In this document: piece after piece, positions 1-19,448 of the stretch
Layout of the letters: every line of letters starts with the position of its first letter
Position numbering within the stretch: the stretch's first letter is position 1
From: Phycisphaerae bacterium
GTDB taxonomy: Bacteria; Planctomycetota; Phycisphaerae; UBA1845; Fen-1342
Length of the DNA: 64,000 nt
Reading direction: 5' to 3'
Assembly: GCA_050115495.1 (NCBI GenBank)
Contig: JASFQK010000001.1
Location: forward strand, 1-64,000
Made by a program: the position numbers and the translations under genes
Notes under the pieces: generated by a model
Database searches by the model: none
Seen by the model: only the letters and a program-made list of their open reading frames with translations
What the model was told of the DNA's origin: nothing

Positions 1-300
1 ACGTCCTTCTGCCGAAAGCGGATCGCCTGCCGCGAATGCCGGGATGCCGGGCCTACGGGCGACGCCTGGCGCGACCGCGAGGGCGCCCCCGAGACCTGCC
101 CGTTCGGCGTGACCGCCGACACGCTGCTGGCCGCCCGCCCCGAACCCTGCTCGGCGGCCGGAGCCGCGTGCGACCACTGGCGAGCCCGGAAATGCCACCT
201 CGACCCCGCCGACTCGCGGTGCCTGTCGGACCTGCGCTTCAAAGGGCCCGCCGGCGACTGCCCGCTGGGCTGGCGGTCGGCACAAGCGGCTGTTGGCTAG
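1..300 (+). CDS. Partial (5'-truncated) Cys-rich hypothetical protein
   Basis: Frame 1 is open from base 1 to TAG at 298-300: TSFCRKRIACRECRD...WR...CPFG...C...C...C...C...CPLGW. Clustered Cys residues suggest metal binding. Confidence 0.5.
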   Translation, partial: TSFCRKRIACRECRDAGPTGDAWRDREGAPETCPFGVTADTLLAARPEPCSAAGAACDHWRARKCHLDPADSRCLSDLRFKGPAGDCPLGWRSAQAAVG

Positions 301-677
301 CGGCGCCGCTCCTGGTCGCCATCGCCAGGACCGTCACGAACGACGGTCAGGCCGAGCAGACGGCCGGAGACCTGGGCCGGCGCGTTAACCGCCAGGTCGG
401 CGGTGCCCGCGGTCCACTCGATCAGAATACGCACGGGCTTGGACCAGTCTTCATCCGTGGCAGCTGGCGCGGGCGAACAGCATATGAACACCTTGGCGAG
501 GCAAGCCCGAGTGCTCCGCGTTCCCCGTTGAAGCTATTCGTACAGCTAGCAGAGCGGCCCTGCCGGGGACGGGCCGTACACTCATTGCATTCTTGGTGAT
601 GCCGAATCGTGGCGATGGTCCGGGCACAAACGGCACACTGCCTGTTCCGGGGGTGGGGGGGTACGCCAACTCAGTGC

Positions 678-705
678 TTGACTTTCGTCCTGGCCTGATT
701 AGGGT
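678..705 (+). promoter_or_regulatory. Putative sigma70 promoter of cas3
   Basis: TTGACT (678-683), 16-nt spacer, TAGGGT (700-705); SD AGGAGG before ATG 738. Confidence 0.35.
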
Positions 706-737
706 TCTGTCTACGGCACGCCAGGAGGGTTAGCGCA

Positions 738-2993
738 ATGACAGACTTCTGGGGACACGTCGCGCCATCACGCGAGGGGAAGGAGTGGGAGCCGCTGGCA
801 GAACACCTACGGCTTGCCGCCGACGGCAACAAGTACTTCGCCGGGGCCGCCGGGTTTGCTGAGGTGTTTGGGGCCGGCGATTGGGGGCGACTGATCGGCT
901 TGTGGCACGATATCGGCAAGTACTCGACGGAGTTTCAGGAGTACCTGCGGCAGGCGAACGACGTCGAGGCCCACCTGGAGACTCGGCAGGGCAAGGTGGA
1001 TCACTCGTCCGCCGGCGCGCAGCATGCTGCCGCGGAGTATCGGGGGGTAACTGGCCAGTTGCTCGCATACTGCATCGCTGGTCACCATGGGGGTTTGCCG
1101 GATAACGTCGATCCGGGGGGCGGTGAATCGGGTCTGGCGAGCCGGTTGAAGAAGGCCATCTGCGACTACTCGGCGACACCGCAGGAGATACTGAAGCAGC
1201 CGAAGCTGCACGCGCCGGTGTTCAAGCCAGAAGATGAAGGCAAGTCCCTCTCCGCCTTCCAGCTTTCGGTGTTCTGCCGGATGTTGTACTCGTGTCTGGT
1301 GGACGCCGACTTCCTGGCCACAGAGGCATTCATGCAGCCGGAGCAGGCGGCGGAGCGCGTGCAGGCGCCGCCGGCGATGGCAGAGTTGCTGACACGGCTC
1401 GACGCTCACCTGGAGCGGCTGGCGGCGTCGGCGGCGAAGGACTCGGCCGTCAACCGCGCGCGGGTGGACGTTCTGGCGCAATGCCGGGAGAAGGCGCGGT
1501 GTGGGCCCGGGCTGTACTCGCTGACCGTGCCCACGGGCGGCGGCAAGACGCTCTCTTCGCTGGCGTTCGCCCTGCATCACGCCATCGCGCACGATTTGCG
1601 CCGCGTCATCTACGCGATCCCGTTCACCAGCATCATCGAGCAGAACGCGAAGGTGTTCCGCGGGGCGCTCGCCGGCGACGGGCCAGACGTGGTGCTGGAG
1701 CACCACAGCAACCTCGAATCGGACAAGGAAACACGCTGGGGACGGCTGGCCGCCGAGAACTGGGACGCGCCGATTGTCGTCACGACGAACGTGCAGCTCT
1801 TCGAGTCGCTGTTCGCCAGCAAGCCGTCGCGCTGCCGCAAGCTTCATCACATCGCCCGCAGCGTCATCATCCTGGACGAGTGTCAGACGCTGCCGGTCAC
1901 GTTGCTGGCCCCGACGCTACGCATGCTGGACGAACTGCGCCGCAACTACGGGTGTACCGTCGTGCTCTGCTCGGCGACACAGCCGGCGGTGGAGCAGCGT
2001 GAGGGGTTCAGGATCGGCCTGGCGGGCGTCCGTGAGATCATCGCCGATCCGCCGGCACTGTCTGCGTCGCTCCAGCGAGTGGACGTGCAACGCGTCGGCA
2101 AGCTCGATAACACGGCCGTCGTCGAGCGGCTCCGCCAGCACGAGCGCGTCTTGTGCGTGGTGAACACGCGTCGCCACGCCCTGGAGCTCTTCACAGCGCT
2201 GTGCGAGGCCACCGATTCTGCGGACGGCGTCTTTCACCTCAGCACGCGGATGTGCGCCGCGCATCGCACCGATGTGCTCGCGCGGATTCGCGAGCGGCTG
2301 GATCCGGCCCGGCCGCAGCCCTGCCGGGTAATCAGCACCCAGTTGATCGAGGCCGGCGTGGACATCGACTTCCCGGTCGTCTTCCGGGCGATGACGGGGC
2401 TGGACTCGCTCGCCCAGGCCGCCGGGCGGTGCAACCGGGAGGGGCGCCTGCCGCGCGGCGACGTCTTCGTATTTGACACGGACGTCGATCCGCGGGGTGA
2501 CCTGCGGTTGCGGCGGCAGTTGGGCAGCGAGGTCGCCCCCGAGCACGACGACCTGCTCGGGCTGGAAGCCATCGAGCACTACTTCCGCCTGCTGTACTGG
2601 ACGCGGCAGGACGAGTGGGATCGGGAGAAGATCCTCGGAGACTTCGGGTTCGGCGGAGGCGGGCTCCATTTCCAGTTCCGTGAGGCAGCGCGGAAGTACC
2701 GACTCATCCCGGATGGCCAGCAGCCGGTGATCGTGCCCTACGGATCGATCGGCGAGAAGCTCGTCGCGGAGCTCCGGGCCATGATCGAGGATCCCGGCCG
2801 CAACTTCGACCGGCGGGCGCAGCGTCACGTCGTGGCGCTCTACCAGTGGGAGTTCGACCAACTGCGCCAGAATCAGGCGATTGCCCAATACCACGAGCGG
2901 TTCTGGGTGCTGGAGAATAACGCGGCCTACGACGAGCGGGTCGGTTTGAGAACTGACGTATCGGGTTTCACTCCCGAAGTGCTGTGCCAATAG
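738..2993 (+). CDS. cas3: CRISPR-associated HD nuclease/helicase Cas3
   Basis: N-terminal HD domain (HDIGK, HHGGL, LVDAD), Walker A PTGGGKT, DECQ, SAT, STQLIEAGVDID, QAAGRCNREG. Confidence 0.97.
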   Translation: MTDFWGHVAPSREGKEWEPLAEHLRLAADGNKYFAGAAGFAEVFGAGDWGRLIGLWHDIGKYSTEFQEYLRQANDVEAHLETRQGKVDHSSAGAQHAAAEYRGVTGQLLAYCIAGHHGGLPDNVDPGGGESGLASRLKKAICDYSATPQEILKQPKLHAPVFKPEDEGKSLSAFQLSVFCRMLYSCLVDADFLATEAFMQPEQAAERVQAPPAMAELLTRLDAHLERLAASAAKDSAVNRARVDVLAQCREKARCGPGLYSLTVPTGGGKTLSSLAFALHHAIAHDLRRVIYAIPFTSIIEQNAKVFRGALAGDGPDVVLEHHSNLESDKETRWGRLAAENWDAPIVVTTNVQLFESLFASKPSRCRKLHHIARSVIILDECQTLPVTLLAPTLRMLDELRRNYGCTVVLCSATQPAVEQREGFRIGLAGVREIIADPPALSASLQRVDVQRVGKLDNTAVVERLRQHERVLCVVNTRRHALELFTALCEATDSADGVFHLSTRMCAAHRTDVLARIRERLDPARPQPCRVISTQLIEAGVDIDFPVVFRAMTGLDSLAQAAGRCNREGRLPRGDVFVFDTDVDPRGDLRLRRQLGSEVAPEHDDLLGLEAIEHYFRLLYWTRQDEWDREKILGDFGFGGGGLHFQFREAARKYRLIPDGQQPVIVPYGSIGEKLVAELRAMIEDPGRNFDRRAQRHVVALYQWEFDQLRQNQAIAQYHERFWVLENNAAYDERVGLRTDVSGFTPEVLCQ

Positions 2994-3024
2994 AAAAAGA
3001 CGGGCCGGACTGTACGTCCGGCCC
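2994..3024 (-). terminator. Intrinsic terminator on minus strand (3' end of mini-guide RNA)
   Basis: Minus strand reads GGGCCGGAC-GTACA-GTCCGGCCC followed by GTCTTTTT; the U-tract is only on the minus strand. Confidence 0.8.
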
Positions 3025-3083
3025 TTGTCACAACCCCAGCAAAGTATGTTTCAATCCGCTGCGAACAAACGACTTGCGCGCAG
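2994..3083 (-). ncRNA. CRISPR-like regulatory RNA (crlRNA/CreR-like mini-guide)
   Basis: Minus strand: hairpin CTGCG-C-GCAAG-TCG-TTTGT-T-CGCAG (3083-3059), exact last 11 nt of the array repeat CGGATTGAAAC (3058-3048), guide ATACTTTGCTGGGGTTGTGACAA (3047-3025), then terminator. The guide matches 3147-3162. Confidence 0.85.
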
Positions 3084-3122
3084 AAACCAACGAAAGGAAG
3101 CTGAGAATTATCGGTGGACAAC

Positions 3123-3151
3123 TTGACCACCGACATCCCACATTTTATACT
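3123..3151 (+). promoter_or_regulatory. Sigma70 promoter of the cas5-cas8c-cas7 operon (target of the mini-guide)
   Basis: TTGACC (3123-3128), 17 nt, TATACT (3146-3151); near consensus in a GC-rich genome. Confidence 0.85.
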
Positions 3152-3323
3152 ATGCTGTGGTTAAACATTCAACTCAAGCGGAAACCGATCATGGCACTCT
3201 ACTCGCCACAACTCGCACGCCCGCCGCCACGGCGGACAACCAAAAGCCCGGCCCCCGGCGGCAATTGCCGCCGGGGGACCATTCTCCCTTGTCCGTGTGC
3301 TAACCGACCAAGGAGAACACACC

Positions 3324-4007
3324 GTGAATTATAACGTAAGGCTCCGAGTTCGGGGGCCGGATGCATGTTTCACACGTCCTGAGATGAAGGTCGAGCGTGT
3401 CTCGTATGACGCGATGACACCCTCGGCTGCACGCGGCGTTCTGGAGGCGATCTACTGGAAGCCGCAGATCTGCTGGGTGGTCCAGCGGATCCACGTTCTC
3501 AACGAGATTCGCTACACCAACCTGCGCCGCAACGAGATCGGCGCCAAGGTGGTCGTCGCCGGCGGCTCTGGCGCTGGCCGAGCCATGAAGGCCGGGCGGG
3601 GACGGCTCGGCCTGTTCGTCGAGGAAGAACGCCAGCAGCGGGCCGCCACGATGCTCCGCGACGTGGACTACCTCGTCGAGGCACGGTTCGAGATCGTGAG
3701 CGGTGACGAACCGCCGGCGAAGCATTACGAGATGTTCCGCCGGCGGGCTGAGAAGGGGCAGTGCTTCCACCATCCCTACCTCGGCTGTCGGGAATGCGCC
3801 TGTGATTTCGCCTGGCACGAGGGCGAGCCGCCGACCGGGTTCTACTCCGCCGGCCAGCCGGGTGCTGAGCCGGCGGAGCGCGACCTGGGGTTCATGCTCC
3901 ACGACATCGACTTCGACAACGACATGACGCCGCGGTTCTTCCGCGCCGTCATGCGGCGGGGCGTGATCGATGTTCCGCCGTTTGAGGCGGCGGAGGTGCA
4001 CCGATGA
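3324..4007 (+). CDS. cas5: Type I-C Cas5 (Cas5c/Cas5d), crRNA-processing endoribonuclease
   Basis: [50 protein letters not shown] start at 3324 after SD AAGGAG. Confidence 0.96.
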
Positions 4008-5779
4008 TCCTGCAAAGACTGGTCGAGTACTACGACCGCCTGGAGGCCGAACCGGAGAGCGACATCGCGCAGTTCGGGTTCAGCCGGCAGAAGATCAGTT
4101 TCGTGGTCGTGCTGAAGGCCGACGGCTCGCTGGTGGAGTTTCAGGATGCCCGCCGGGAAGAGAACGGACGAGCGATCGCCCAGAAACTGGTTGTACCGGG
4201 GTTGGCGAAGTCCTCTGGTTCGGGCATCAACCCGTGCTTTCTCTGGGACAATGCCCAGTACATGCTCGGCTTCAAGGCAGACGACCCGAAGCCGGAGCGT
4301 ACGAAGAAGGCGTTCGAGGCCTTTCGCGATCGGCACACGGGCCTCGAAGAGGAGATCGCCGACGAGGCGTTCTCGGCCGTCTGCCAGTTCTTGCGGACCT
4401 GGAACCCCGACGAGGTGGCCGCCGACGCGAAGCTGGCGGAGATCGCCAGTTCGTTCGGCATCTTCCGCATCGCCGGCCAGGTGGAGTACGTCCACGACCG
4501 CCCGAAGGTCCGCGCCTACTGGCTCGGACAGTTGGACGGTGCAGATGCCGACGCCCCGCGGGTCCCGTCGCTGATCAGCGGTGAGGTGCAGCCGATCGCC
4601 CAGTTGCACAAGCCGAAGATCAAGGGCGTCCGGGGTGCGCAGAGTTCGGGTGCGACGTTGGTCTCGTTCAACGCCGATGCCTACGAGTCGTATGCCAAAG
4701 AACAGAGTCTAAACGCCCCCGTGGGTGTCGCCGACGCGTTCAAGTACTGCACGGCGCTTAACCGTCTGACGGCGGCGCGCGAGCGGCAGGTGCATCTGGC
4801 CGACACGACCGTCGTCTTCTGGTCCGAACGGCCGACGGCCCTGGAAGACGAGTGCTTCGGCATGTTTGAGGTCGATCGAGCAGAAGATCCGGAGGCAGTC
4901 GAGCGGCTGAAGAACTTCTTCGCACGCTTACGTCGGGCCGCCGACGGCGCCGCGTTCGAAGATGGCGACGTGCCATTCTACGTCCTCGGCCTGTCGCCGA
5001 ACGCGGCACGTGTTTCGGTGCGGTTCTGGCTGGCGGGCACGGTGCAGCAGTTCGCCGCGCGGCTGGGGCGGCATCTGGCGGATCTGGAGCTCGCCGGCGC
5101 ACCGCCGGACATGCCACCGATCTCGCTACAGCGCATCATCGATCAGACCGCTCGCGAGCGTGACGACATCCAGCCGCTGCTCGGTGGCGCCGTGCTGGAG
5201 GCCGTCCTGTCCGGCGGGCCGTATCCGGTGTCGCTGGCTGCGGCGGTGCTGCGTCGGCTGCGGGCCGACGGTCAGACGGGCGGCATCAACGGGCACATTC
5301 GCGCCGCCATTCTCAAGGCATATCTGGTTCGCAAGCTGAGGCTCAGGAACCAACAGGAGACCATTGGCATGTCGCTCGATACCGCCTGTCCCCACACGGC
5401 CTATCACCTGGGGCGTCTGTTCGCCGTGTTGGAAAAGACGCAGGAAGAGGCGCTGGGTCGCGATCTGAATGTGACGATCAAGGACCGTTACTTCAGCTCT
5501 GCGTCCGCCAACCCGGTGGCGGCCTTCCCTCGCCTGCTGCGGCTTCACGCACACCACCTCGACAAGCTCGGTGCCGACAAGCGGGGGCTGAAGGTGATAC
5601 GCGAGAAGCTCGTCCAGGAAATCTGCGACCACGTCAACGCCGCGGCGGGCTTCCCGGCCCACCTGCCCCTCGACGAGCAGGGGCTCTTCTTCATCGGCTA
5701 CTACCATCAGCGTCAGGTGTTGTTCACATCCAACAAGACCGAGAGCGAGGCGTCCGCCGTCACCAACAGGGAGGACTAG
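4004..5779 (+). CDS. cas8c: Type I-C large subunit Cas8c (Csd1)
   Basis: [77 protein letters not shown] overlap with cas5. Confidence 0.96.
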
Positions 5780-5782
5780 TCC

Positions 5783-6682
5783 ATGAGTTCCAACAGCAAT
5801 TCGATCGAGAACCGCTACGACATCGTTTACCTCTTCGACATCACCGATGGCAACCCGAACGGCGATCCGGACGCCGGCAACCTGCCGCGAATCGACCCGG
5901 AGACCGGGCAGGGCCTGGTCACGGACGTGTGCCTGAAGCGGAAGATCCGCAACTACGTCGGGCTGCGGTATGGCGAGCAGCCGCCGCACGAGATCTACGT
6001 GAAGGAACGGGCCATCCTCAACAGCCAGCACGAGCGGGCCTACCAGGCCGTCGGCGAGAAGCCCGAGAAGCGCAAGATGCCCAAGGACGAGAAGAAGGCC
6101 CGCGAGATCACAGCGTGGATGTGCGGCAACTTCTTCGACATCCGCACGTTCGGCGCGGTGATGAGCACCGACGTCAACTGCGGGCAGGTGCGCGGCCCGG
6201 TCCAGTTCAGCTTCGCCCGCAGCCTCGATCCGGTCGTTTCCGCCGAACACGCGGTGACGCGGTGCGCCGTGACCACCGAGGCGGAGGCGGAGAAGCAGCA
6301 GGGCGACAACCGCACGATGGGCCGCAAGTTCACGATTCCCTACGGGCTGTACCGCGTGCACGCCTTCGTGAACCCGCACCTGGCGGCGCAGACCGGCTTC
6401 TCGGGCGACGATCTGGAGCTGTTCAAGGAGGCGCTCGGCCAGATGTTCGAGCACGACAAGTCCGCCGCCCGCGCGAACATGCGTCCGGTGCGCTGCATCG
6501 CCTTCAAGCACGACAGCAAGCTGGGCAACGCCCGGGCCGATCAGCTCTTCGCCCGCGTGCACGTCGGGTTGAAGCCGGAGCTGGCCGAGCAGAAGCGCCC
6601 GCCGCGCAGCTTCGCTGACTACACGGTGAACGTGGATGAAAGCGATCTGCCGCAGGGCGTGACGGTCGAGCACTGGATCTGA
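5783..6682 (+). CDS. cas7: Type I-C Cas7 (Csd2)
   Basis: [51 protein letters not shown]. Confidence 0.97.
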
Positions 6683-6762
6683 AGCCGCGTGACCGGCTCG
6701 GCCGCGGGGAGATGCTTCAGTATGCGCATGCCCGTGGCCGGCCGGCCGATGGGGTAACGGAC

Positions 6763-7497
6763 ATGTTCTCCGAAGACGAACTGCTGCCGATCTCAGCGTT
6801 GCAGCATCTGTTGTTCTGCGAGCGGCAGTGTGCGTTGATTCACATCGAGCGTCTGTGGGCGGAGAACCGGCTGACCGTCGAGGGTCGGCACCTGCATGAG
6901 AAGGCGCATGGCGGCCGGGGCGAGCGGCGTGACGGGGCGCAGATTCTGCGCGGACTGCCCCTGCGCTCGCTGCGTCTCGGCCTGGCCGGCGTGGCGGATG
7001 TGGTGGAGCTTCACCCAGCCGCCGCCCGCGACGGGCCAACACCGGCGACCGCCCAACCCGCCGACGTCGCCGCGCCGGCGGGAGCGGCGGCCCCGCCCGG
7101 AACGCCGTTTCCGGTCGAGTACAAACGTGGTCGGCCGAAGTCCAACGACTGCGATCGCATCCAGCTCTGCGCCCAGGCCTTGTGCCTGGAAGAAATGCTC
7201 GGCGTCGCCGTGCCGGCGGGAGCGCTCTTCTACGGGCGTACCCGCCGGCGGCAGGACGTCCTGTTCGACGCCGACCTGCGCAGCCTAACGGAGCAGGCGG
7301 CCGCGCGGCTTCACGAGCTGATCGCTGCCGGTGTCACGCCGGTCGTGCCGCCTCAGCGAAAGTGCCGCAACTGCTCACTCGTGCACCAGTGCCTGCCCCA
7401 GGCCGGCGGTCGTCGGTCAGTCCAGGCGTACATGATGCGGCGACTACGGGAGGGCATGGAGGTGAGCCAAGCCGATCCGGGAGGTGCAGATGCTTGA
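6763..7497 (+). CDS. cas4: CRISPR-associated RecB-like nuclease Cas4
   Basis: ISALQHLLFCERQCAL, ADVVE, PVEYKRG, QLCAQALCLEEM, CRNCSLVHQC Fe-S cysteines; start placed at ATG 6763. Confidence 0.95.
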   Translation: MFSEDELLPISALQHLLFCERQCALIHIERLWAENRLTVEGRHLHEKAHGGRGERRDGAQILRGLPLRSLRLGLAGVADVVELHPAAARDGPTPATAQPADVAAPAGAAAPPGTPFPVEYKRGRPKSNDCDRIQLCAQALCLEEMLGVAVPAGALFYGRTRRRQDVLFDADLRSLTEQAAARLHELIAAGVTPVVPPQRKCRNCSLVHQCLPQAGGRRSVQAYMMRRLREGMEVSQADPGGADA

Positions 7498-8632
7498 GTT
7501 GATCTACCACGATTTCGCTGACCTGAAAGGCCTGTCTCGCATCGACGCCGCCGTTCGCAAGATTGTCGCCAGGAAGGTTGATATCGCGTGCCCATATCTG
7601 GGTCCTGCATACGTGGAAGACGTACTTCGCGGTGCTTCGTCGTTCCGGTTGGTCACAGACATCGACGCGTGCTTTGCCGATCTGCGCAAGGCCGACCGCC
7701 GGGCACTCCTGAACTGGATGGAGCAACACTGCGCGTCCATCCGCCACTTCACACAGTTGCACGCCAAGACGCTGATTGGGGCGAACCAAGCCCTGGTTGG
7801 ATCAGCCAATCTGACCGAGACGGGCGTGAGCAAACGAGCAGAGATGGTTGTCCGTATCCGGGATACGCCGATCGTGCAGGAGGAGCTTGCCCGCTGGTTC
7901 GAGCAGTTGTGGACGAACTCGTCGCCTATAGACGCCGATCAACTCCGCCGTGGCTTGGCGAGTCTGCCTGATCGACGCGCCACCCGGCGGAACGAAGCCG
8001 GCGTTCCTCTTCTCGCGCAGCGCTCGCCGGTCGAGTTCAAGACACGCATCGGCGGCAGGGCGACCCCCAGTGCCAAGAAACGTCGCAAGTCTCCGGAGTT
8101 CGACGAGCCGGCGTTGATCGCCAAGCTCTCCAAGTTCACAGACCGCGCCCGCGTCGAGTTCTTCTTCGACTGGGCCCAGGAGGTGTACGCCGCAGCAGAG
8201 CATCTGCCCGTCCAGCCGACGCTCTTGCTTACCCTGCCCAACAAAGGTGTCTTGACGCTTCAGATCTGCAATCGGTACGCCGTGACAGTCAAGCGCCGCG
8301 ATGTCAGCGACGGCTCCGGTTCGTTCATGTATCCCGCGCAGCAACGCGAGATTCTCGAACGAGATCCACCTCCCTGGCTGGTGAGGATTACCGATTTCCA
8401 ACGGCCACCGCGGGAGCCGCCGCGCCCCATCCCGCTGTATATCCGATTCCGCTTCCCGCTCGGCGACCGCGACCGGAGCACGATTCAACGGAGGTGGCTT
8501 GAGGCGGTCAAGAGCGAGTTCACACGGGAGCAACCCGCCGCGCCGACCGCAATACACCAGCCTCTGCTGAAACGAATGACACTCGAACCCGAATACCGCC
8601 TCAAGATCCTCGATCAGGTCTTCAGCAGGTAA
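7490..8632 (+). CDS. PLD-family (HKD-variant) nuclease-like domain protein with unknown C-terminal domain
   Basis: IACPY, LHAKTLIG, LVGSANLT, GVSKRAEM, WFEQLW; SD GGAGG at 7480; overlaps the cas4 stop. Confidence 0.8.
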   Translation: MLELIYHDFADLKGLSRIDAAVRKIVARKVDIACPYLGPAYVEDVLRGASSFRLVTDIDACFADLRKADRRALLNWMEQHCASIRHFTQLHAKTLIGANQALVGSANLTETGVSKRAEMVVRIRDTPIVQEELARWFEQLWTNSSPIDADQLRRGLASLPDRRATRRNEAGVPLLAQRSPVEFKTRIGGRATPSAKKRRKSPEFDEPALIAKLSKFTDRARVEFFFDWAQEVYAAAEHLPVQPTLLLTLPNKGVLTLQICNRYAVTVKRRDVSDGSGSFMYPAQQREILERDPPPWLVRITDFQRPPREPPRPIPLYIRFRFPLGDRDRSTIQRRWLEAVKSEFTREQPAAPTAIHQPLLKRMTLEPEYRLKILDQVFSR

Positions 8633-8637
8633 TCGCC

Positions 8638-9669
8638 ATGAAGCAACACCTCAACACGCTCTACGTGACGACCCACGGGGCCTACCTGGCCAAGGACGGC
8701 GAAGCGGTGGCCGTGCGCGTCGACGGCGAATGCCGCCTGCGCGTGCCACTGCTCAACCTGGGCGGCGTCGTGTGCTTCGGCGGCGTCGGGGCCAGCCCGC
8801 CACTTATGGCCGCCTGCGCCAAAGCGGGCGTGGCCCTGTCATTCCTTACATCCAGCGGACGCTTCCTGGCCCGCGTCTCCGGCTTCACCCCCGGTAACGT
8901 GCTGCTGCGCCGTGAGCAGTATCGCCAGGCCGACGACGAACCGGCCGCCCTGGCCATCGCCAGGAATTCCGTCTTGGCCAAGATCGCCAACTCGCGGGCG
9001 GTGCTGCAGCGTGGCGCGCGGGATCGCCCCGATGCGCCCGGTAGCGACACGCTACGGGCCGCGGCGGACTATCTGACGCAGGCGCTGCACGACGTGGAGC
9101 ACACGACGTCGCTGGACCAACTGCGCGGGCTGGAGGGAGATGCGTCGCGGGTGTACTTCGGGACCTTCAACGGCCTTATCACGCGTCCGGACGAGTCGTT
9201 CACCTTCCGCGGTCGCAGCCGCCGGCCGCCGCTGGACAACGTCAATGCGCTGCTCTCGTTCCTGTACGCCATTCTGACGCATGATGCGCGGTCGGCCTGC
9301 GAGGCGACGGGGCTCGATCCGGCGGTGGGCTTCCTGCACCGCGATCGGCCGGGCCGGCCGGGGCTGGCCCTCGACCTCATCGAGGAATTCCGCGCGTACC
9401 TCGCCGACCGCGTGGCCCTGTCGCTGATCAACCGACAGCAGGTCCGAGCGGCGGGCTTCGTCCAGGGCGAGACCGGCGGCGTCACCATGGACGACGAGAC
9501 GCGCAAGACCGTGCTGGTGACCTATCAGAAACGCAAGCAGGACGTCGTCGAACACCCGTTCCTCAAAGAGAAGACGACCGTCGGCCTGCTCGTGCACCTG
9601 CAAGCGCGGCTGCTGGCCCGCTACCTGCGCGGCGAACTGGACGCCTACCCGGCGTTAATCATGAAGTGA
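8638..9669 (+). CDS. cas1: Type I-C Cas1 integrase
   Basis: MKQHLNTLYVTT, GNVLLRREQY, LRGLEG, RRPPLDNVNALLSFLY, GFLHRDRPGR, LDLIEEFR. Confidence 0.97.
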   Translation: MKQHLNTLYVTTHGAYLAKDGEAVAVRVDGECRLRVPLLNLGGVVCFGGVGASPPLMAACAKAGVALSFLTSSGRFLARVSGFTPGNVLLRREQYRQADDEPAALAIARNSVLAKIANSRAVLQRGARDRPDAPGSDTLRAAADYLTQALHDVEHTTSLDQLRGLEGDASRVYFGTFNGLITRPDESFTFRGRSRRPPLDNVNALLSFLYAILTHDARSACEATGLDPAVGFLHRDRPGRPGLALDLIEEFRAYLADRVALSLINRQQVRAAGFVQGETGGVTMDDETRKTVLVTYQKRKQDVVEHPFLKEKTTVGLLVHLQARLLARYLRGELDAYPALIMK

Positions 9670-9687
9670 CTCTGTCGGGGCCCAGAT

Positions 9688-9978
9688 ATGTTCGTGCTCG
9701 TGACCTACGACGTCTCAACAACGACCAAGGCGGGCAGGCGGCGGCTGCACCAAGTGGCCAAAGCGTGCCTGGATTTCGGGCAGCGCGCACAGAACTCGGT
9801 CTTCGAGTGCCAGGTCGATCCGGCACAGTTCGCCGAGCTCAAGCACCGCCTGCTTTCAATTTACGATGAAGAGGAGGACAGCATCCGGTTCTACCTGCTG
9901 GGTTCGAACTGGCGGGGCCGGGTCGAGCATTACGGGATCAAGCCGACGGTGGACCCGGATGGCCCGCTGCTGGTCTGA
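9688..9978 (+). CDS. cas2: Cas2
   Basis: VLVTYDV, RRRLHQVAKACLDFGQRAQNSVFEC, DSIRFYLLG. Confidence 0.97.
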   Translation: MFVLVTYDVSTTTKAGRRRLHQVAKACLDFGQRAQNSVFECQVDPAQFAELKHRLLSIYDEEEDSIRFYLLGSNWRGRVEHYGIKPTVDPDGPLLV

Positions 9979-10169
9979 GGATTCCGCCACCACGCGAACC
10001 CACAGCGCACAGGGTTGGCCCGGGAGGTTCGCGGGTTGCGTAAGTTGGTCTTTGACAAGTAGATAGGGTCGTTGGCTGTGTAGCGGATGCTCGCCAGCGT
10101 GTCGTCGCCGCCGGCGTTCGCGGCTTCCGTGTCGTTACATCGGCGGGACAAAGGATTTGGGACAGAAGC
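9979..10169 (+). promoter_or_regulatory. CRISPR leader
   Basis: Non-coding stretch between cas2 and repeat 1; inverted motif CGCGAACC (9993-10000)/GGTTCGCG (10026-10033), a further GTTCGCG at 10116, and a TTGACA hexamer. Confidence 0.8.
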
Positions 10170-12611
10170 GTCGCTCCCCCCGCGGGAGCGCGGATTGAAA
10201 CAGTGCCGGCCGACGACACGCGGGCTCGTGGCGAACGTCGCTCCCCCCGCGGGAGCGCGGATTGAAACAGCGCTCGCAACGTCCAGATCTTCGCGGCCGC
10301 AGCGTCGCTCCCCCCGCGGGAGCGCGGATTGAAACATCGTCGCGCTGGCGCGGCGGATCGGGGCGGCGATGTCGCTCCCCCCGCGGGAGCGCGGATTGAA
10401 ACGTCGTGGCGCAACGAGAGACAACCGACCGTAGTCCAGTCGCTCCCCCCGCGGGAGCGCGGATTGAAACGGCTCCGCCCCGACCAGCGTGCTGCCAGCC
10501 AGGTAGTCGCTCCCCCCGCGGGAGCGCGGATTGAAACCGGATCCACCGCGCACACCGCGCAATGCACGCCCGTCGCTCCCCCCGCGGGAGCGCGGATTGA
10601 AACCCGCTGCTGACCGGGGCGATGACGATCGCGCAGCGTCGCTCCCCCCGCGGGAGCGCGGATTGAAACCTGCCCGCTCGCCGGCGAGCGCAGCAGGGCA
10701 CCCGTCGCTCCCCCCGCGGGAGCGCGGATTGAAACCTCTCACTCAACATCAAAGCTCACCGTCCCTGCCGGTCGCTCCCCCCGCGGGAGCGCGGATTGAA
10801 ACTCCAACGCCCCGCGGCCCCGGGACGGCCTGGGGGGAGTCGCTCCCCCCGCGGGAGCGCGGATTGAAACCGGAGGTGGTGGAGCCGTGAGGAAAGAGAG
10901 CCGTCGTCGCTCCCCCCGCGGGAGCGCGGATTGAAACGGTAGCACCAGCGGGTGGAGCACGTACGACCCGAAGTCGCTCCCCCCGCGGGAGCGCGGATTG
11001 AAACACGGCGGTCGGGACGGAGGGCGACGGGTTCGTGCCGGGTCGCTCCCCCCGCGGGAGCGCGGATTGAAACGGCGACCACTCGATGCTGCCGGCGGCG
11101 CAGTTGAGCGTCGCTCCCCCCGCGGGAGCGCGGATTGAAACGAGCGCCGCGTCGGCGTGACGATCCAAACGGCGTCGTCGCTCCCCCCGCGGGAGCGCGG
11201 ATTGAAACCTGGATTTCTCGCAGATGGATGAGATGGCGGAATGGTCGCTCCCCCCGCGGGAGCGCGGATTGAAACTGCAGCAGCCGCAGCGGCCCGACCG
11301 CTCGCCACCCGTCGCTCCCCCCGCGGGAGCGCGGATTGAAACGGCCGGCCACCAGAAAGCGGATACTTGACGGCCTGTCGCTCCCCCCGCGGGAGCGCGG
11401 ATTGAAACTGCTCCCCCGCCGCAGATCTTTACGGCGGAAGAGGTCGCTCCCCCCGCGGGAGCGCGGATTGAAACTGCGCGCCGACGACTGGGGGGACCGA
11501 AGGGCCGGGTCGCTCCCCCCGCGGGAGCGCGGATTGAAACATTGCCGTGACGGATCGTTAGCGTTAGGAGCCGGAGGTCGCTCCCCCCGCGGGAGCGCGG
11601 ATTGAAACGCCGTACCGAACGCTGACGAGGGCGTGCCCGCCGAGGTCGCTCCCCCCGCGGGAGCGCGGATTGAAACGAAGAGGCGTACGACGTGTGCCTG
11701 GTGTCCAGCGTGGTCGCTCCCCCCGCGGGAGCGCGGATTGAAACACGTAAGGGCTCCTATGCCTCTGTGCTCATCTGGTCGCTCCCCCCGCGGGAGCGCG
11801 GATTGAAACATCATCGCGCTGGCGCGGCGGATCGGGGCGGCGCTGTCGCTCCCCCCGCGGGAGCGCGGATTGAAACTTCTGCGGGGCCATCTCATTCGGC
11901 GGGGAGACGGGTCGCTCCCCCCGCGGGAGCGCGGATTGAAACCAAGTAGGGCATACTGGCCGGGGAGCCGAGCCAGGTCGCTCCCCCCGCGGGAGCGCGG
12001 ATTGAAACGTCGTCGGCGTCCAGCCCGTCAGCCAAACGCACGGGTCGCTCCCCCCGCGGGAGCGCGGATTGAAACCTCGCGCAAGGTCCTCAGGCGCTCC
12101 CGCAGATCGTGTCGCTCCCCCCGCGGGAGCGCGGATTGAAACCTGCTCAAGGATCCCAGCACACCCGCCACCCGTCCGTCGCTCCCCCCGCGGGAGCGCG
12201 GATTGAAACACCCCGTACTCGTGCCGCCCGCCATCGAACCGCACGTCGCTCCCCCCGCGGGAGCGCGGATTGAAACCACGAGGACCAGGAAGGCCTCTAT
12301 CGCGCGGCCGGTCGCTCCCCCCGCGGGAGCGCGGATTGAAACGCTGTACGGCATCAGAGCCCATCCATCGTTTCGCGTCGCTCCCCCCGCGGGAGCGCGG
12401 ATTGAAACGCTGTACGGCATCAGAGCCCATCCATCGTTTCGCGTCGCTCCCCCCGCGGGAGCGCGGATTGAAACAAGGACCTGCACCGCGGCGTGCTGAT
12501 CGCCGTCGCGAGTCGCTCCCCCCGCGGGAGCGCGGATTGAAACATCTTGATGGCGTGAACTACAAAGAGACGTGCTGTGGTCGCTCCCCCCGCGGGAGCG
12601 CGGATTGAGGC
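10170..12611 (+). CRISPR. Type I-C CRISPR array, 37 repeats / 36 spacers (33-37 nt)
   Basis: 32-nt repeat GTCGCTCCCCCCGCGGGAGCGCGGATTGAAAC (stem CGCTCCC/GGGAGCG). The terminal repeat 12580-12611 is degenerate (ends TTGAGGC), supporting + orientation. Confidence 0.99.
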
Positions 12612-13032
12612 AGGCCTGCTCAGCCGAGCTGCGAATCGATACAGCTACCCGTCGCTGTGCAGTCGTCCAACCCAGGTTCCTCAGTCTCGCGGCGGCCAAG
12701 GCCGCATCGCTGCTGCGCTGCGTCCAAGCCTCGTGGATGGCACGGGGCTCCGCGCAGAAACATGGATCACGCGCGCCGCAACTGCCAATGTACAATGAGA
12801 TTACATCAATTCCCACCAGGGGCAGCGGTGGGGCGCGCGGCCGTCTCCGGGTCATCCGCCGGGGGCGCTCTTCAGCCACTGTCGGCGCTACTGACCTCTG
12901 ACCGGGCAGACCGCCCGAACTGTGCCACTGCCAGCGCCCCCGGCGACCGGGAAGCATGCCGGCCTCGCGTCGAACAGAGTTGGCTCGCCATTTCCGAGTC
13001 TCTGGGTCCTATTAGCCGTTGGTTAAGCGAGA

Positions 13033-13048
13033 TGGCACGCGTCGTGCT
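13033..13048 (+). promoter_or_regulatory. Putative sigma54 -24/-12 promoter upstream of gdh
   Basis: TGGCACGCGTCGTGCT has GG-N10-GC spacing, about 115 nt upstream of ATG 13164. Confidence 0.5.
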
Positions 13049-13163
13049 GTGTGACGGGCATCGGCCGGCGATGTGATTGGGGGCATCCCTGGTGCCCGAT
13101 CGCCGGCCACCGCCGACAGTGTACGGCAACGTCCGCTTCGTTTCGAGAGAAGGGATCGGTTAC

Positions 13164-14450
13164 ATGAGTACCAAGCCTTTCAATGCCTTCGCGATGGCCC
13201 AGGCCCAGTTTGACAAGGTCGCTGAGAGCCTTGGATTGGATCAGGGAACCAAAGACCTCTTGCGGCAGCCGATGCGAGAATACCACTTCGGTCTGCCGGT
13301 GCGGATGGATGACGGGACGACCAGGGTCTTTCGCGGCTTCCGCGTGCAGCACAATGACGCCCGCGGGCCGGCCAAGGGCGGTATCCGGTTCCACCCCCAG
13401 GAAACGGCCGACACCGTGCGGGCCCTGTCGATGTGGATGACGTGGAAGTGCGCCGTCGCGAACCTGCCCCTCGGTGGCGGCAAGGGCGGCGTGATCTGCG
13501 AACCGCACAACCTGAGCATGCCCGAGCAGGAGCGCATCTGCCGGGCGTATGTGCGCCAAATCGCGCGGGACATTGGCCCGTTGCGGGACGTTCCGGCGCC
13601 TGACGTGATGACGTCCGGCCAGCACATGCTCTGGATGCTCGACGAGTACGAGCAGATCCGCGGCGAACGTTATCCGGGCGTGATCACCGGCAAGCCCGTG
13701 GGTATGGGCGGGTCCCTCGGCCGGACCGAGGCCACCGGCTACGGTGTCGTTTTCACAGTACGCGAAGCGTTGAAGGAACTGAACATACGGCCGCAGGACA
13801 CGATCGCAGCCGTGCAGGGATTCGGGAACGTCGCGCAATACGCGATCGAGCTATACAGCCAGATCGGCGGAAGGGTCATCGCCGTATCCTGCTGGGACCA
13901 GGAGGATCAGCAGCCGTACACGTTCCGCAAGAAGGACGGCGTGAACCTGGCCGAACTGCGGAAGATCACCGACCGCTTCGGCGGCATCAACAAGCAGAAG
14001 GCCGCCGAGCTCGGGTATGAGCGGCTGCCGGGTGATGCGTGGATCGAGCAGGACGTGGACATCCTCTTCCCGTGTGCACTGGAGAACTCGATCACGGGGG
14101 ACAACGTGTCGCGTATCTCGAAGCGCGTTAAGCTGATCGCCGAAGGGGCCAACGGCCCGACCACGCCGGACGCGGACCACGTGCTGCACGAGCGCAGCCT
14201 GTTCGTCATACCGGACTTCCTGGCGAATGCGGGCGGCGTCACCTGCAGCTACCTGGAGCAGGTGCAAAGCAACATGAACTACTTCTGGCAGAAGGACGAG
14301 GTGCTCGGCAAGCTCGACACCATGATGACTTCAGCCTTCATCGCCGTGAGCGACATGGCGCGCAAGCGAAAGCTCTATATGCGCGATGCCGCGTACACGA
14401 TCGCTATCGCACGCGTAGCGCAGGCGTGCAAGGACAGAGGCTGGGTGTAG
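13164..14450 (+). CDS. gdhA: Glu/Leu/Phe/Val dehydrogenase (glutamate dehydrogenase)
   Basis: RVQHNDARGPAKGGIRFHP, GGGKGG, DVPAPD, TGKP, GRTEATGYG, VQGFGNV, EGANGPTT, PDFLANAGGV. Confidence 0.93.
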   Translation: MSTKPFNAFAMAQAQFDKVAESLGLDQGTKDLLRQPMREYHFGLPVRMDDGTTRVFRGFRVQHNDARGPAKGGIRFHPQETADTVRALSMWMTWKCAVANLPLGGGKGGVICEPHNLSMPEQERICRAYVRQIARDIGPLRDVPAPDVMTSGQHMLWMLDEYEQIRGERYPGVITGKPVGMGGSLGRTEATGYGVVFTVREALKELNIRPQDTIAAVQGFGNVAQYAIELYSQIGGRVIAVSCWDQEDQQPYTFRKKDGVNLAELRKITDRFGGINKQKAAELGYERLPGDAWIEQDVDILFPCALENSITGDNVSRISKRVKLIAEGANGPTTPDADHVLHERSLFVIPDFLANAGGVTCSYLEQVQSNMNYFWQKDEVLGKLDTMMTSAFIAVSDMARKRKLYMRDAAYTIAIARVAQACKDRGWV

Positions 14451-14483: not shown

Positions 14484-16229
14484 ATGGGTGCACAGGCTGA
14501 CAGGGGCGTGTTCCCGCCATTCGACCGCAAGTTCTTTGAATCGGATCGGGACTTCACGGTCATCGGCGGCGGCGAGTTGGGGGGTAAGGCTCTCGGCCTG
14601 GCCACGGCCAAACGCATTGTCGAGGAAGCTCTGCCGCCCGGTTCACTTCCCGGCGTAGAAGTCAGCATTCCGCGTCTGACGGTGCTCGGGACCGGAGTCT
14701 TCGAGCAGTTCATGGAGACGAACGACCTCCGTGAAGTGGCCCTGTCGGACCTGCCGGACGACCGCATCGCACACGCCTTCGTTCAGGCGGAGCTTCCGCC
14801 GGTTTGCGTCGGCGATCTGCACGCCTTGATCGCCCAGACGCACACGCCGCTGGCGGTACGCTCGTCGAGCCGGCTGGAGGACGCGCTGCAGCATCCCTTC
14901 GCCGGCGTCTACGCGACCAAGATGATCCCGAACAACCAGGCGGCGACGGCGGACCGCTTCCGCAAGCTCGCCGAGGCGATCAAGTTCGTGTGGGCGTCCA
15001 CGTTCTTCCGTGATGCGAAAAGCTACATGCGGGTGATCGGTCATCCGCTCGGCAGCGAGCGGATGGCGGTCGTCGTTCAGGAGGTGGTCGGCGAGCGCTT
15101 CGGCGATCGATACTATCCCGTCATCTCGGGCGTGATTCGCACACACAACTTCTATCCGAGCGGTCCGGCCAGGCCGGAGGATGGCGTCGTGAACCTCGCC
15201 CTGGGGCTGGGCAAGACGATCGTCGACGGGGGTGTGACCTGGACGTACAGCCCACGGTTCCCGAACCATCGCCCGCCGTTCGGATCCGCACGCGAATTGC
15301 TGGCGAACACACAGACGCAGTTCTGGGCCGTCAGCATGGAAGCTGCGCCATATGATCCGGTCAACGAAGCCGAGCATCTGGTGCAGTGCGGGCTGGATGT
15401 GGCCGAGTGGGACGACGTGCTGCGCTTCACGGCGTCCACGTACGATGCAGCTTCCGATCGCCTGACGCTGGGTATCGGCGTGGAAGGCCCGCGCGTCCTG
15501 ACCTTCGGGCGGATCCTCGAACTGAACGACGTGCCGCTGAATCACGTTGTGGAGAGGCTGTCGGCACAATGCAAGGCTGCGCTGCAATGCGACGTGGAGA
15601 TCGAATTCGCGGTGACGTTGGACCGCCGGACCGGCCTGCCGGCGCGTTTCGGCTTCCTGCAGGTGCGTCCGATGATGGTCGCCCAGGATTCGGTCCAGGT
15701 GAGTGAGGAGGACTTGTGCGGCGATGGGGCGCTGGTCGCCAGTGAGACCGTGCTTGGGAATGGACGCGACGATTCCATCGCGGACGTCGTCTACGTGAAG
15801 CCGACCGCGTTCGAGGCCAGACACACGCCGGCGATTGCCGCGGAAGTCGAGACACTCAACCGAGAACTCGCTTCGGCCGGTCGGCCCTATGTCCTGATCG
15901 GCTTTGGCCGCTGGGGCAGCAGCGATCCCTGGCTCGGCGTCCCGGCCACGTGGCCGCAGATTTCGGGAGCACGGGTAATCGTTGAAGCCACGTTACCTGA
16001 AATGAACGTGGACGCCAGCCAGGGGTCACACTTCTTCCACAACATGATCAGCTTCGGCGTGCTCTACTTCACGGTCCGGCATACGGACCGTTACGCGATC
16101 GACTGGCAATGGCTTGACGGGCAGCCGGCCTCGTCCGAGACTCGATTCCTGCGGCACGTGCGGCTCGGCGTGCCCCTGGAGGTTCGTGTCGACGGCCGCC
16201 ACGGCCGCGGCGTGATGCTGCACAGATGA
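14484..16229 (+). CDS. PEP/pyruvate-binding (PPDK_N-like) domain protein
   Basis: GGKALGL, LAVRSSSRLED, FAGVY, MAVVVQEVVG, LGLGKTIVDG, EIEFA, LQVRP, GRWGSSDPWLG, SQGSHFFHN. Confidence 0.85.
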   Translation: MGAQADRGVFPPFDRKFFESDRDFTVIGGGELGGKALGLATAKRIVEEALPPGSLPGVEVSIPRLTVLGTGVFEQFMETNDLREVALSDLPDDRIAHAFVQAELPPVCVGDLHALIAQTHTPLAVRSSSRLEDALQHPFAGVYATKMIPNNQAATADRFRKLAEAIKFVWASTFFRDAKSYMRVIGHPLGSERMAVVVQEVVGERFGDRYYPVISGVIRTHNFYPSGPARPEDGVVNLALGLGKTIVDGGVTWTYSPRFPNHRPPFGSARELLANTQTQFWAVSMEAAPYDPVNEAEHLVQCGLDVAEWDDVLRFTASTYDAASDRLTLGIGVEGPRVLTFGRILELNDVPLNHVVERLSAQCKAALQCDVEIEFAVTLDRRTGLPARFGFLQVRPMMVAQDSVQVSEEDLCGDGALVASETVLGNGRDDSIADVVYVKPTAFEARHTPAIAAEVETLNRELASAGRPYVLIGFGRWGSSDPWLGVPATWPQISGARVIVEATLPEMNVDASQGSHFFHNMISFGVLYFTVRHTDRYAIDWQWLDGQPASSETRFLRHVRLGVPLEVRVDGRHGRGVMLHR

Positions 16230-16250
16230 GCTGCGCAGGCAGCGGAGGCC

Positions 16251-19200: not shown

Positions 19201-19448
19201 TGCTGGTGCACTTCGTTGGGACCGACAGCCAGCGCCAGGAGCTCAAGCGGTGGTTCGAGGGCTGGGGCCAGGCACTCAGTGAGATCAACTACCTCCGCAC
19301 CGGCTGCCGAACCGACAGCCTGCTCGACGTTCACCTCGTCACCGACGAGGACATCACCAAGCGCACGAGTTACGCGGTGAAGATCGGCGCTGTGACCGAT
19401 CCAGCACGTGAGCTGCCGCTCGGCGATGCGCTGCCACCCGCTAAATGA
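16251..19448 (+). CDS. PPDK_N-like domain protein with N-terminal sensory-like region and C-terminal nucleotidyltransferase domain
   Basis: LRERAKELNCLY N-terminus; GGKGAGL, IVRSSSLLED, FSGKYKS, GLGTRAVD, DIEFA, LLQCR, GPGRWGS, SFGTHFF; C-terminal YVFGS...SDIDLLV. Confidence 0.85.
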   Translation: MMTDQNDRVTEILRSLRERAKELNCLYQIEEILNSEDLPLGDVFRGVVDAIPPGWQYPNVCVARIRYENKDHAFGDFRETEWMQKAVIRVYGEPVGTLEVAYIEQMPQADEGPFLKEERKLLETVAERIGSCITHRRLLETMRCSRESDHASRHRGREWAAILDLMRRTDQSLLMRVARKMINHLCWCGVKEAGDLLQKFRPQREPDEPEVFFESNRPRGRDSAPSATLLADSVFELAHAHLSDDEIISCVHNWVRQDRASFLVNTLEDSSTSISEVSDAIQRYQHVGHEEVELSPSTRKGLLVSLVRRFLSDQLEYINVAKQYVEIGDFHRLVQRMIYPTRGHGKTGGKGAGLFLAYQIVQRHRADNELLAGIKTPKTWYLTSDGMHDFVYCNHLEDVFSQKYKEIDEVRQEYPDIVQVFKNSQFSAAIVKGLSLALDDLGDRPLIVRSSSLLEDRFGAAFSGKYKSLFLANRGTKQQRLAALMDAISEVYASAFGPDPIQYRAERNLLDFQEGMGVLIQEVVGTQVGDYFLPAFAGVAFSHNEIRWSPRIKREDGLVRLVLGLGTRAVDRLGDDFPILVSPGQPQLRANATPEEVARYSPRYLDVINLQTNEFETVDAAEFLREAGDRMPAVEQLVSVYKDGRLQQPLVGSIDFERDDLVVAFEGILNRTPFVKQIHALLNVLERELRHPADIEFASDGKDLYLLQCRAQAPAKHAKPAPIPRDIPPSRLVFSANRYVSNGIVPNITHIVYVDPEQYSRLGSREELIAVGRAVGKLNKLLPKRQFILMGPGRWGSRGDMKLGVSVTYSDISNTAMLIEIARKTGDYTPDVSFGTHFFQDLVEAGIRYLPLYPDEDNVAFNELFFTRSPNLLAELTPEYASLSDTVHVIDVPRAADSQVLYVLMNTDLDEAVGVLTEPTEYLEYGDDSGRALAAAGGQDWRWRARMAESVAARLDPQRFGVKALYVFGSTKNATAGPASDIDLLVHFVGTDSQRQELKRWFEGWGQALSEINYLRTGCRTDSLLDVHLVTDEDITKRTSYAVKIGAVTDPARELPLGDALPPAK

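Follow-up and report, generated by a model that had tools for sequence, protein, structure and literature searches.

Nucleases of the phospholipase D (PLD) fold that are encoded by a single gene are the closest described systems to the gene reported here. A recent study (PMC12191111; bioRxiv 2025.03.31.646159) describes a PLD nuclease, encoded by one gene and carrying a sensor at its C-terminus, that was shown experimentally to act in phage defence, as well as a larger group in which an N-terminal PLD domain like those of BfiI and NgoAVII is combined with variable C-terminal recognition domains that set which DNA is cut. In that paper, the END sensor (iEndoIII) domain is reported to occur also with McrB-like GTPases. 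Neither the PLD fold nor the "PLD plus reader" design is new. In this study, the first 64,000 nucleotides of contig JASFQK010000001.1 of a wetland Phycisphaerae bacterium (assembly GCA_050115495.1; hereafter the window) were analyzed. Judged by its sequence, the region 738-9978 (+ strand) of the window is a full type I-C cas operon, belonging to a CRISPR system, plus one extra open reading frame (ORF). The extra gene (7490-8632, + strand) lies between cas4 and cas1 and encodes a product of 380 amino acids, P0001, which was characterized from its ORF, Pfam matches, a family search, and a structure model. With a probability of roughly 55%, we consider P0001 to be a self-contained restriction-type DNA endonuclease that was inserted in this I-C operon, would be co-expressed with the cas genes, and is predicted to sense modified or foreign DNA.

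P0001 shares with the END group (END-PaCF1, BfiI, and SauUSI), as presented in PMC12191111, the organization in one gene, a BfiI/NgoFVII-type PLD domain with a single HxK at the N-terminus, and a distinct C-terminal domain expected to select the substrate. Also shared are the absence of an adjoining methyltransferase and a sensor-type domain that occurs with McrB-like GTPases as well, the latter suggested for the P0001 family by ESM Atlas models. P0001 differs from the group in that its C-terminal domain is modeled as six-stranded and double-wing-like and not as an inactivated EndoIII, EVE, helicase, or pseudobarrel domain, in that its gene sits in a cas operon, and in that its activity is predicted. 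According to the same study, the type IIS enzymes BfiI (2c1l) and NgoAVII/NgoFVII (4rct) have B3-like pseudobarrel C-terminal domains and are encoded with methyltransferases (PMC12191111), whereas P0001 comes without either. The P0001 score on PF09565 was 17.9 bits, under the cut-off of 23.8, and no DNA methyltransferase family was found among the 12 ORFs scanned with Pfam at 36-14450. Salmonella Nuc (1byr/1bys) and NucT (6ehi) are minimal dimeric single-HKD nucleases without a C-terminal DNA reader, unlike P0001; the similarity is marginal (profile E 0.22-0.25), and P0001 lacks the HKD motif's Asp. Nuc and NucT are secreted or periplasmic non-specific nucleases. Compared with the canonical I-C order cas4-cas1-cas2, all three genes are present and look intact, but here a foreign gene of 1.14 kb parts cas4 from cas1.

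The reading frame and its PLD domain

The longest frame of the PLD gene extends from a GTG at 7484 to 8632 (382 aa), and the ATG at 7490 gives the 380-aa product. This ATG is located 5 nt 3' of a Shine-Dalgarno-like GGAGG, read from the sequence at 7480-7484 (+) within the 3' end of cas4, with the in-frame GTG two codons upstream, and it overlaps the cas4 stop codon (ATGCTTGA). The TAA ends at 8632 and the ATG of cas1 is at 8638, leaving a gap of 5 nt. A previous sequence-only reading of this DNA had described a 380-aa ORF overlapping the cas4 stop and ending 5 nt before cas1, and this description was confirmed.

The arrangement was recovered from two sequencing runs. In run X1, which may be the source sample, a single contig covered 5500-10199 with zero differences. 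In run X2, a sediment sample from another study and year, a 1,339-nt contig covered 6304-7642 at ~97% identity and spanned the cas4/PLD junction, which rules out an assembly artefact. Because this contig comes from an independent run, at least two natural populations carry the PLD gene straight after cas4. A second X2 contig covered 7617-7779 and 7936-8233; the PLD/cas1 junction was bridged in X1 only and was unbridged in X2. The X2 copy of the gene also displayed a mosaic divergence despite near-identical flanks: most of it was 97–100% identical to the window, but the segments 7779-7936 and 8233-8538 were too divergent to align at 90%, and one divergent segment (153 vs. 156 letters) lay over the catalytic core, residues 97-149.

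The N-terminal single-HKD PLD domain comprises residues 1-157 (7490-7960, +). P0001 matched PLDc_2 (PF13091) over residues 53-141 with 38.7 bits against a gathering cut-off of 27, and the same family matched all 53 full-length members of the P0001 family (53/53), with RE_NgoFVII matching 41 of the 53 at E ≤ 0.01. The motif order is H91-A-K93, G104-S105-A-N107, and E118, and the predicted catalytic residues are H91 (7760-7762), K93, S105, N107, and E118 (7841-7843). In the alignment of the 53 members, P35, D57, H91, K93, S105, N107, T109, and E118 were invariant, and we equate the invariant H, K, S, N, and E with the catalytic residues of Nuc. The canonical Asp of the HxK(x)4D motif is replaced by Ala98 in P0001. 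Since an Asp at K+5 was present in just 11 of the 53 members, its absence is a trait of the family and not a lesion. The Asp of this motif is structural, not catalytic.

The AlphaFold2 model of P0001 reached a mean predicted local distance difference test (pLDDT) score of 90.7 with the 53-member alignment, compared with 44.6 with three sequences. The PLD alpha/beta fold was found in the model, with one HKD unit per chain: a single PLDc_2 stretch is present, and the remainder has a different fold. Residues ~158-205 (RRATRR...KKRRKS; 7961-8104, +) form a basic linker of variable length, which is predicted to be disordered, with a pLDDT of 49–63 and gap-rich, variable alignment columns. The protein starts with MLELIYHDF... 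and shows no hydrophobic leader by eye. A phmmer search of P0001 against PDB sequences returned nothing significant (best E 0.18). The single-HKD domain lacking the canonical Asp, the basic linker, and a C-terminal domain of no recognized kind had all been proposed from the sequence alone, and all of them stood up to this analysis.

The C-terminal domain and its family

The C-terminal alpha/beta domain covers residues 206-380 (8105-8629, +) and contains the near-invariant residues R262, W336, E343, H356, and R370. Its model consists of six confidently predicted beta-strands with a conserved C-terminal helical pair. No Pfam family was assigned to this region of ~175 aa in any of the 53 members, and its profile gave 0 matches against PDB sequences. 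In a word-indexed profile search of longer proteins, the domain was always fused to PLDc_2 (11/11 matches, including annotated Natronobiforma and Haloferax proteins), and no other fusion partner, including Cas domains, was found among these 11 matches.

Structural comparisons were made in the ESM Atlas. The C-terminal domain of P0001 matched the Pfam-free part of a Bacteroidota "McrB family" cluster over 167 residues with a template modeling (TM) score of 0.74. The corresponding domain of the Natronobiforma homolog matched its own family cluster (TM 0.81) and a second McrB-lid cluster (0.73), and the two proteins independently matched the non-ATPase part of the same McrB-family cluster (TM 0.74 and 0.77). 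The Natronobiforma domain also matched a T5orf172/MUG113 cluster (TM 0.65), a GmrSD_C/DUF5655 cluster (0.64), and YjbR, DUF5655, and TfoX_N clusters (TM 0.45–0.50). A search of the ESM Atlas by features yielded no usable match. From these models, the domain appears to resemble double-wing DNA binders such as YjbR and the C-terminal domain of MotA. We cautiously regard it as a double-wing-like module and a predicted DNA binder, with look-alikes in four kinds of restriction-type proteins.

Membership in YjbR/MmcQ (PF04237) or DUF5655 (PF18899) by sequence was rejected, as no hidden Markov model (HMM) match was obtained at E ≤ 0.001 in a six-frame search of the genome and none in the 53 members at E ≤ 0.01. 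YjbR is also shorter, with ~120 aa vs. ~175 aa for the P0001 domain and its conserved C-terminal helical hairpin (H356, R370). Membership in the END (iEndoIII/HhH-GPD) proteins was likewise rejected, given a six-strand domain that matches double-wing folds and the lack of any HhH-GPD family in the 53 members. The EndoIII fold is all-helical. HMM searches and structure prediction of both domains had been suggested on the basis of the sequence; they identified PLDc_2 and the PLD fold at the N-terminus and left the C-terminal domain without a Pfam family but double-wing-like by model.

In an exhaustive search without a profile, the number of cluster representatives was 538 at E ≤ 1e-3, falling to 377 at E ≤ 1e-10 and to 20 at E ≤ 1e-30. 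Many of these representatives are 365–400 aa long and align end to end, and many others share only residues ~1-165. The latter have numerous different C-terminal regions; of 32 that were scanned, 30 had only PLD-type Pfam matches, one had a helix-turn-helix domain together with DUF7225, and one had a sub-threshold winged helix. A word-indexed homolog search recovered 2 relatives only, and a single-protein search of genome contigs with P0001 recovered 0. The family was present in 14 of 301 sampled Halobacteria and in 1 of 79 genomes of a second phylum. A metagenome scan gave 42 loci, among which only L039, on a 1.3-kb contig without context, was full-length. When the 53 members were placed in a quick maximum-likelihood tree, P0001 paired with the metagenomic protein P0002 (45–48% identity; 3.9-kb contig) on a long, fully supported branch. 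Six of the 53 members, all in one clade, are strongly acidic, and this make-up is taken as a haloarchaeal signature. The two-domain family is uncharacterized and occurs in bacteria and haloarchaea. Its distribution is sparse and patchy; it is associated with islands and is sometimes near defence genes. In open-access full text, no description was found of this C-terminal domain, of the two-domain family, or of a PLD gene within an I-C adaptation module.

Genomic context of the gene and its homologs

The I-C loci most closely related to that of the window (Cas1 50–78% identical) were compared at the cas4/cas1 junction. In all seven (7/7), the distance from the end of the cas4 alignment to the start of cas1 was 3–112 nt vs. 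1,140 nt here, and tblastn with P0001 found nothing in these loci. No full-length match to P0001 was detected in 40 relatives (6 of the same genus, 18 of the same family, and 16 of the same order), which contained just three weak partial matches (E 7.5e-7 to 3e-4). Similarly, 400 sampled genomes of the phylum contained no full-length match, and four matched the PLD part of the profile only. The GC content of the PLD gene is 0.614 and its third-position GC content (GC3) is 0.745, below every cas gene (cas GC3 0.78–0.93). No shared sequence marking the insertion borders was found when the junction was compared with the seven relatives. The PLD gene is lineage-specific and horizontally acquired, within an operon that has no intergenic DNA at this place.

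Fourteen other loci with full-length homologs were read, namely L002, L003, L036, and those of eleven haloarchaeal genomes; 13 of the 14 are haloarchaeal. None had a cas gene in the examined flanks (0/14), and one abuts a CRISPR array (1/14). Neither a Cas domain nor a DNA methyltransferase was found among 148 neighbor ORFs within ~8 kb at the eleven haloarchaeal loci. A tblastn search with the seven Cas proteins of the window against 71 collected loci also found none, although this crude test would miss distant cas types. Within this small, mainly haloarchaeal sample and the related genomes, a member of the family is in a cas operon only here and in the strain variant in X2; on this basis, the PLD family is not a recurrent cas gene.

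The neighborhoods themselves are diverse. L002, from a bacterial metagenome-assembled genome (MAG), has parA, parB, a tetrapyrrole-type methylase, the homolog, and a VRR-NUC gene. In L003, from a Halobacteriales MAG, the homolog at 10001-11107 is split over frames 2, 3, and 2, as either a pseudogene or an assembly error, and adjoins Cdc6 and a PolD small-subunit-like gene. L036, on a Halobacterium megaplasmid, contains hypothetical proteins, GNAT, Cdc6, a PD-(D/E)XK nuclease, transposases, and an integrase. Among the eleven haloarchaeal loci, integrases were found in L102 (adjacent), L105, and L107, transposases in L100 and L107, and Cdc6 directly upstream in L107; many neighbor ORFs at these loci are without any family. 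Directly downstream of the homolog in L100 is a gene (9156-11972, -) for a protein of 938 aa that joins a PQQ-type beta-propeller to an Mrr_cat restriction nuclease domain at its C-terminus and also matches the PADLOC type IV/Zorya-Mrr models.

In the haloarchaeal genome G585, the stop of the homolog and a I-B-type CRISPR array are 143 nt apart, and the array extends to the end of the contig (C70; L110 8975-9387). Another contig of this genome (C72; L112 1-10500) opens in an array that agrees with it in repeat and orientation, and cas6-cas8b-cas7-cas5-cas3-cas4-cas1-cas2 come next. A join of the two contigs through the array is plausible but unproven. The survey of homolog neighborhoods proposed in the sequence-only reading thus produced no homolog in another cas operon; it did produce variable, island-like regions with integrases, transposases, an Mrr-type enzyme, and this one array 143 nt away.

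Three syntenic haloarchaeal loci also contain a CARF-type HFX_2341-like gene (PADLOC CARF3, E ~1e-160; L100 3407-4378, L103 2292-3278, and L106 302-1261), 0.4–4.7 kb from the homolog. The DNA between this gene and the PLD homolog is variable in content and looks like an insertion hotspot.

The operon in the window, all on the + strand, consists of cas3 (HD nuclease and helicase; 738-2993; Pfam Cas3-like_C_2 1.4e-17, DEAD 1.3e-11, Cas3_HD 2.9e-07), cas5d (3297-4007; Cas_Cas5d 5.4e-44), cas8c/csd1 (4004-5779; Cas_Csd1 1.1e-168), cas7 (csd2; 5783-6682; Cas_Cas7 4.2e-104), cas4 (6712-7497; Pfam 1.8e-20; TIGR00372 115.9 bits vs. a cut-off of 65), the PLD gene, cas1 (8638-9669; Cas_Cas1 1.4e-100), and cas2 (9688-9978; CRISPR_Cas2 6.4e-26). 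Cas1 and Cas2 are full-length by Pfam. Cas4 appears intact from its translation, with four Cys (C36, C218, C221, and C227) and DVVE and EYK, which we take to be the Cas4 motifs. The protein (261 aa) is lengthened by an Ala/Pro-rich insertion, AAARDGPTPATAQPADVAAPAGAAAPPGTP, between the RecB-type motifs (window 7009-7104, residues ~100-131). The CRISPR array (10170-12611, +) has 37 repeats of 32 nt, of which 36 are identical and the last has 2 mismatches, with 0 chance matches expected. All 37 repeat matches fall within the array, and no repeat copy lies between the cas genes. A scan of 6500-10300 found 0 promoter-like sites and 2 terminator-like sites, at or below the shuffle expectation. As this region has no promoter-like site and no above-chance terminator, the PLD gene is presumably transcribed and translated within the operon.

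The locus is chromosomal, and the genes downstream include glutamate dehydrogenase, Mfd, RecG, and an AcrB-type pump. An ORF of 187 aa directly 5' of cas3 (36-599, +) has no Pfam or NCBIfam match. Two long ORFs lie wholly or mostly within the array (10756-11895, -, 379 aa; 12028-12957, -, 309 aa) without a significant family match and are almost certainly spurious. Two neighboring large proteins encoded at 14484-19448 (+) have PPDK_N (ATP-grasp-like) domains, and the second also has a nucleotidyltransferase domain. A protein of 996 aa (21258-24248, +) combines a novel STAND NTPase 5 domain with TPR repeats at its C-terminus and may be a sensor of the Avs-like type.

Possible role of P0001 and alternatives

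As a restriction-type endonuclease, P0001 is expected to work as follows. Two copies would associate via the PLD domains and so form one shared active site, as in Nuc and BfiI; DNA cleavage there would need no metal ions and would proceed by way of a phospho-histidine intermediate at H91. The double-wing-like C-terminal domains would select the DNA, taking the role that variable readers have in BfiI, SauUSI, and the END proteins. The target may be modified (phage) DNA, resulting in type IV-like restriction; a modified-DNA target is considered the likeliest because no methyltransferase is adjacent and the C-terminal domain has look-alikes in McrB-, GmrSD-, and T5orf172-type proteins. The nuclease would then represent an innate layer expressed along with Cascade/Cas3 and the adaptation genes, and any benefit for spacer uptake would arise secondarily from the DNA ends that it generates. 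The sequence-only reading had offered an ancillary nuclease for prespacer supply or backup defence, or a recent passenger insertion. An inserted passenger or backup defence is favored here, as the gene is absent from 7/7 related I-C loci, has a lower GC3 than every cas gene, and has homologs outside cas operons, whereas prespacer supply is without support.

Several points weigh against this assignment. The DNA cleavage, the dimer, and the expression of P0001 are all predicted, and modification dependence, though probable, is purely inferred. The C-terminal domain is not YjbR or DUF5655 by sequence, and its profile is without a PDB match. The top PADLOC/NCBIfam matches of P0001 were DrmC of DISARM and DpdK of Dpd, over the HxK-GSxN region; both are below the NCBIfam cut-offs (30.1 vs. 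133 bits for DrmC and 31 vs. 100 bits for DpdK), so neither assignment was accepted, and Pfam scans of 40 window ORFs turned up no DISARM or Dpd partner domains. The context sample is small, is biased to haloarchaea (13/14), and does not include the closest relative, P0002 (45% identity). A phage collection contained no homolog and viral contigs gave 2 weak N-domain matches, which neither supports nor refutes a defence role. Finally, the homologs beside Cdc6 (L003, L036, and L107) and ParA/ParB (L002) could point to a role in plasmid or replicon maintenance.

This last point leads to the alternative that survives best, which nevertheless seems clearly less probable than a restriction enzyme: P0001 may be a nuclease of a mobile element or replicon, serving plasmid or provirus maintenance, DNA repair, or recombination, and may be a neutral passenger in the cas operon. 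Besides Cdc6/Orc, ParA/ParB, and VRR-NUC, the integrases (L102, L105, and L107), the transposases, and the location on a Halobacterium megaplasmid fit such a role, and the frameshift of the L003 homolog suggests dispensability. However, the ORF in the window is intact, keeps all predicted catalytic residues, and is retained in a second population; its tight packing, which leaves no intergenic DNA, speaks for selection on its expression, and the look-alikes of its C-terminal domain are in restriction-type proteins. Cdc6 and integrase neighbors are also a typical feature of the haloarchaeal islands in which defence genes reside.

It is unlikely that P0001 is a genuine accessory of the adaptation module that acts with Cas4 and Cas1-Cas2, for example by cutting invader DNA, possibly modified, into prespacers and thereby coupling restriction to spacer capture. 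Its exact position between cas4 and cas1, with a start over the cas4 stop and 5 nt to cas1, would make it co-translated with the adaptation genes, and the same arrangement is found in the ~97% identical population of another study. The G585 homolog lies 143 nt before an array whose repeat opens a contig with a full I-B operon, but the join of the two contigs is unproven. Cleavage by restriction enzymes reportedly promotes the acquisition of spacers (Maguin et al., 2022, as cited in PMC12216489). Against such an accessory, 0 of the 7 closest I-C loci carry a PLD gene, cas genes are missing from the examined flanks of all 14 other loci with full-length homologs, and the C-terminal domain is paired only with PLD and never with Cas domains (11/11 matches). 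The terms "phospholipase" and "HKD" are absent from the main text of a survey of CRISPR-linked genes (bioRxiv 10.1101/270033). A bolder form, in which a restriction enzyme is built into the adaptation module, the double-wing reader recognizes modified phage DNA, and the ends are handed directly to I-C spacer capture as a hard-wired innate-adaptive link, is more doubtful still; it is possibly echoed by the haloarchaeal homolog at the edge of the I-B array.

Least probable of all is an inert or non-DNA PLD-fold protein, either a DNA- or ligand-binding regulator (like TrmB/TrmBL2 and the FAM83 PLD-like domains) or a phospholipid or polyphosphate enzyme, because the predicted catalytic residues H, K, S, N, and E do not vary among the 53 sequences and no hydrophobic leader is seen by eye, even though the canonical Asp is missing (Ala98; Asp in only 11/53) and 4 of the 53 members have a weak PP_kinase_C match.

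The placement between cas4 and cas1 in two natural populations offers a natural construct for asking if a restriction nuclease within the module boosts spacer acquisition. Even if the gene is a mere passenger, its presence demonstrates that a foreign gene without intergenic DNA can be accommodated in a cas operon. The family conforms to a recently recognized scheme in which PLD defence nucleases encoded by one gene have interchangeable readers. Because look-alikes of its C-terminal domain occur in McrB-, GmrSD-, and GIY-YIG-type proteins, this domain may provide modification-dependent restriction with a new specificity module, a possibility of relevance to phage defence and to tools for epigenetic DNA.

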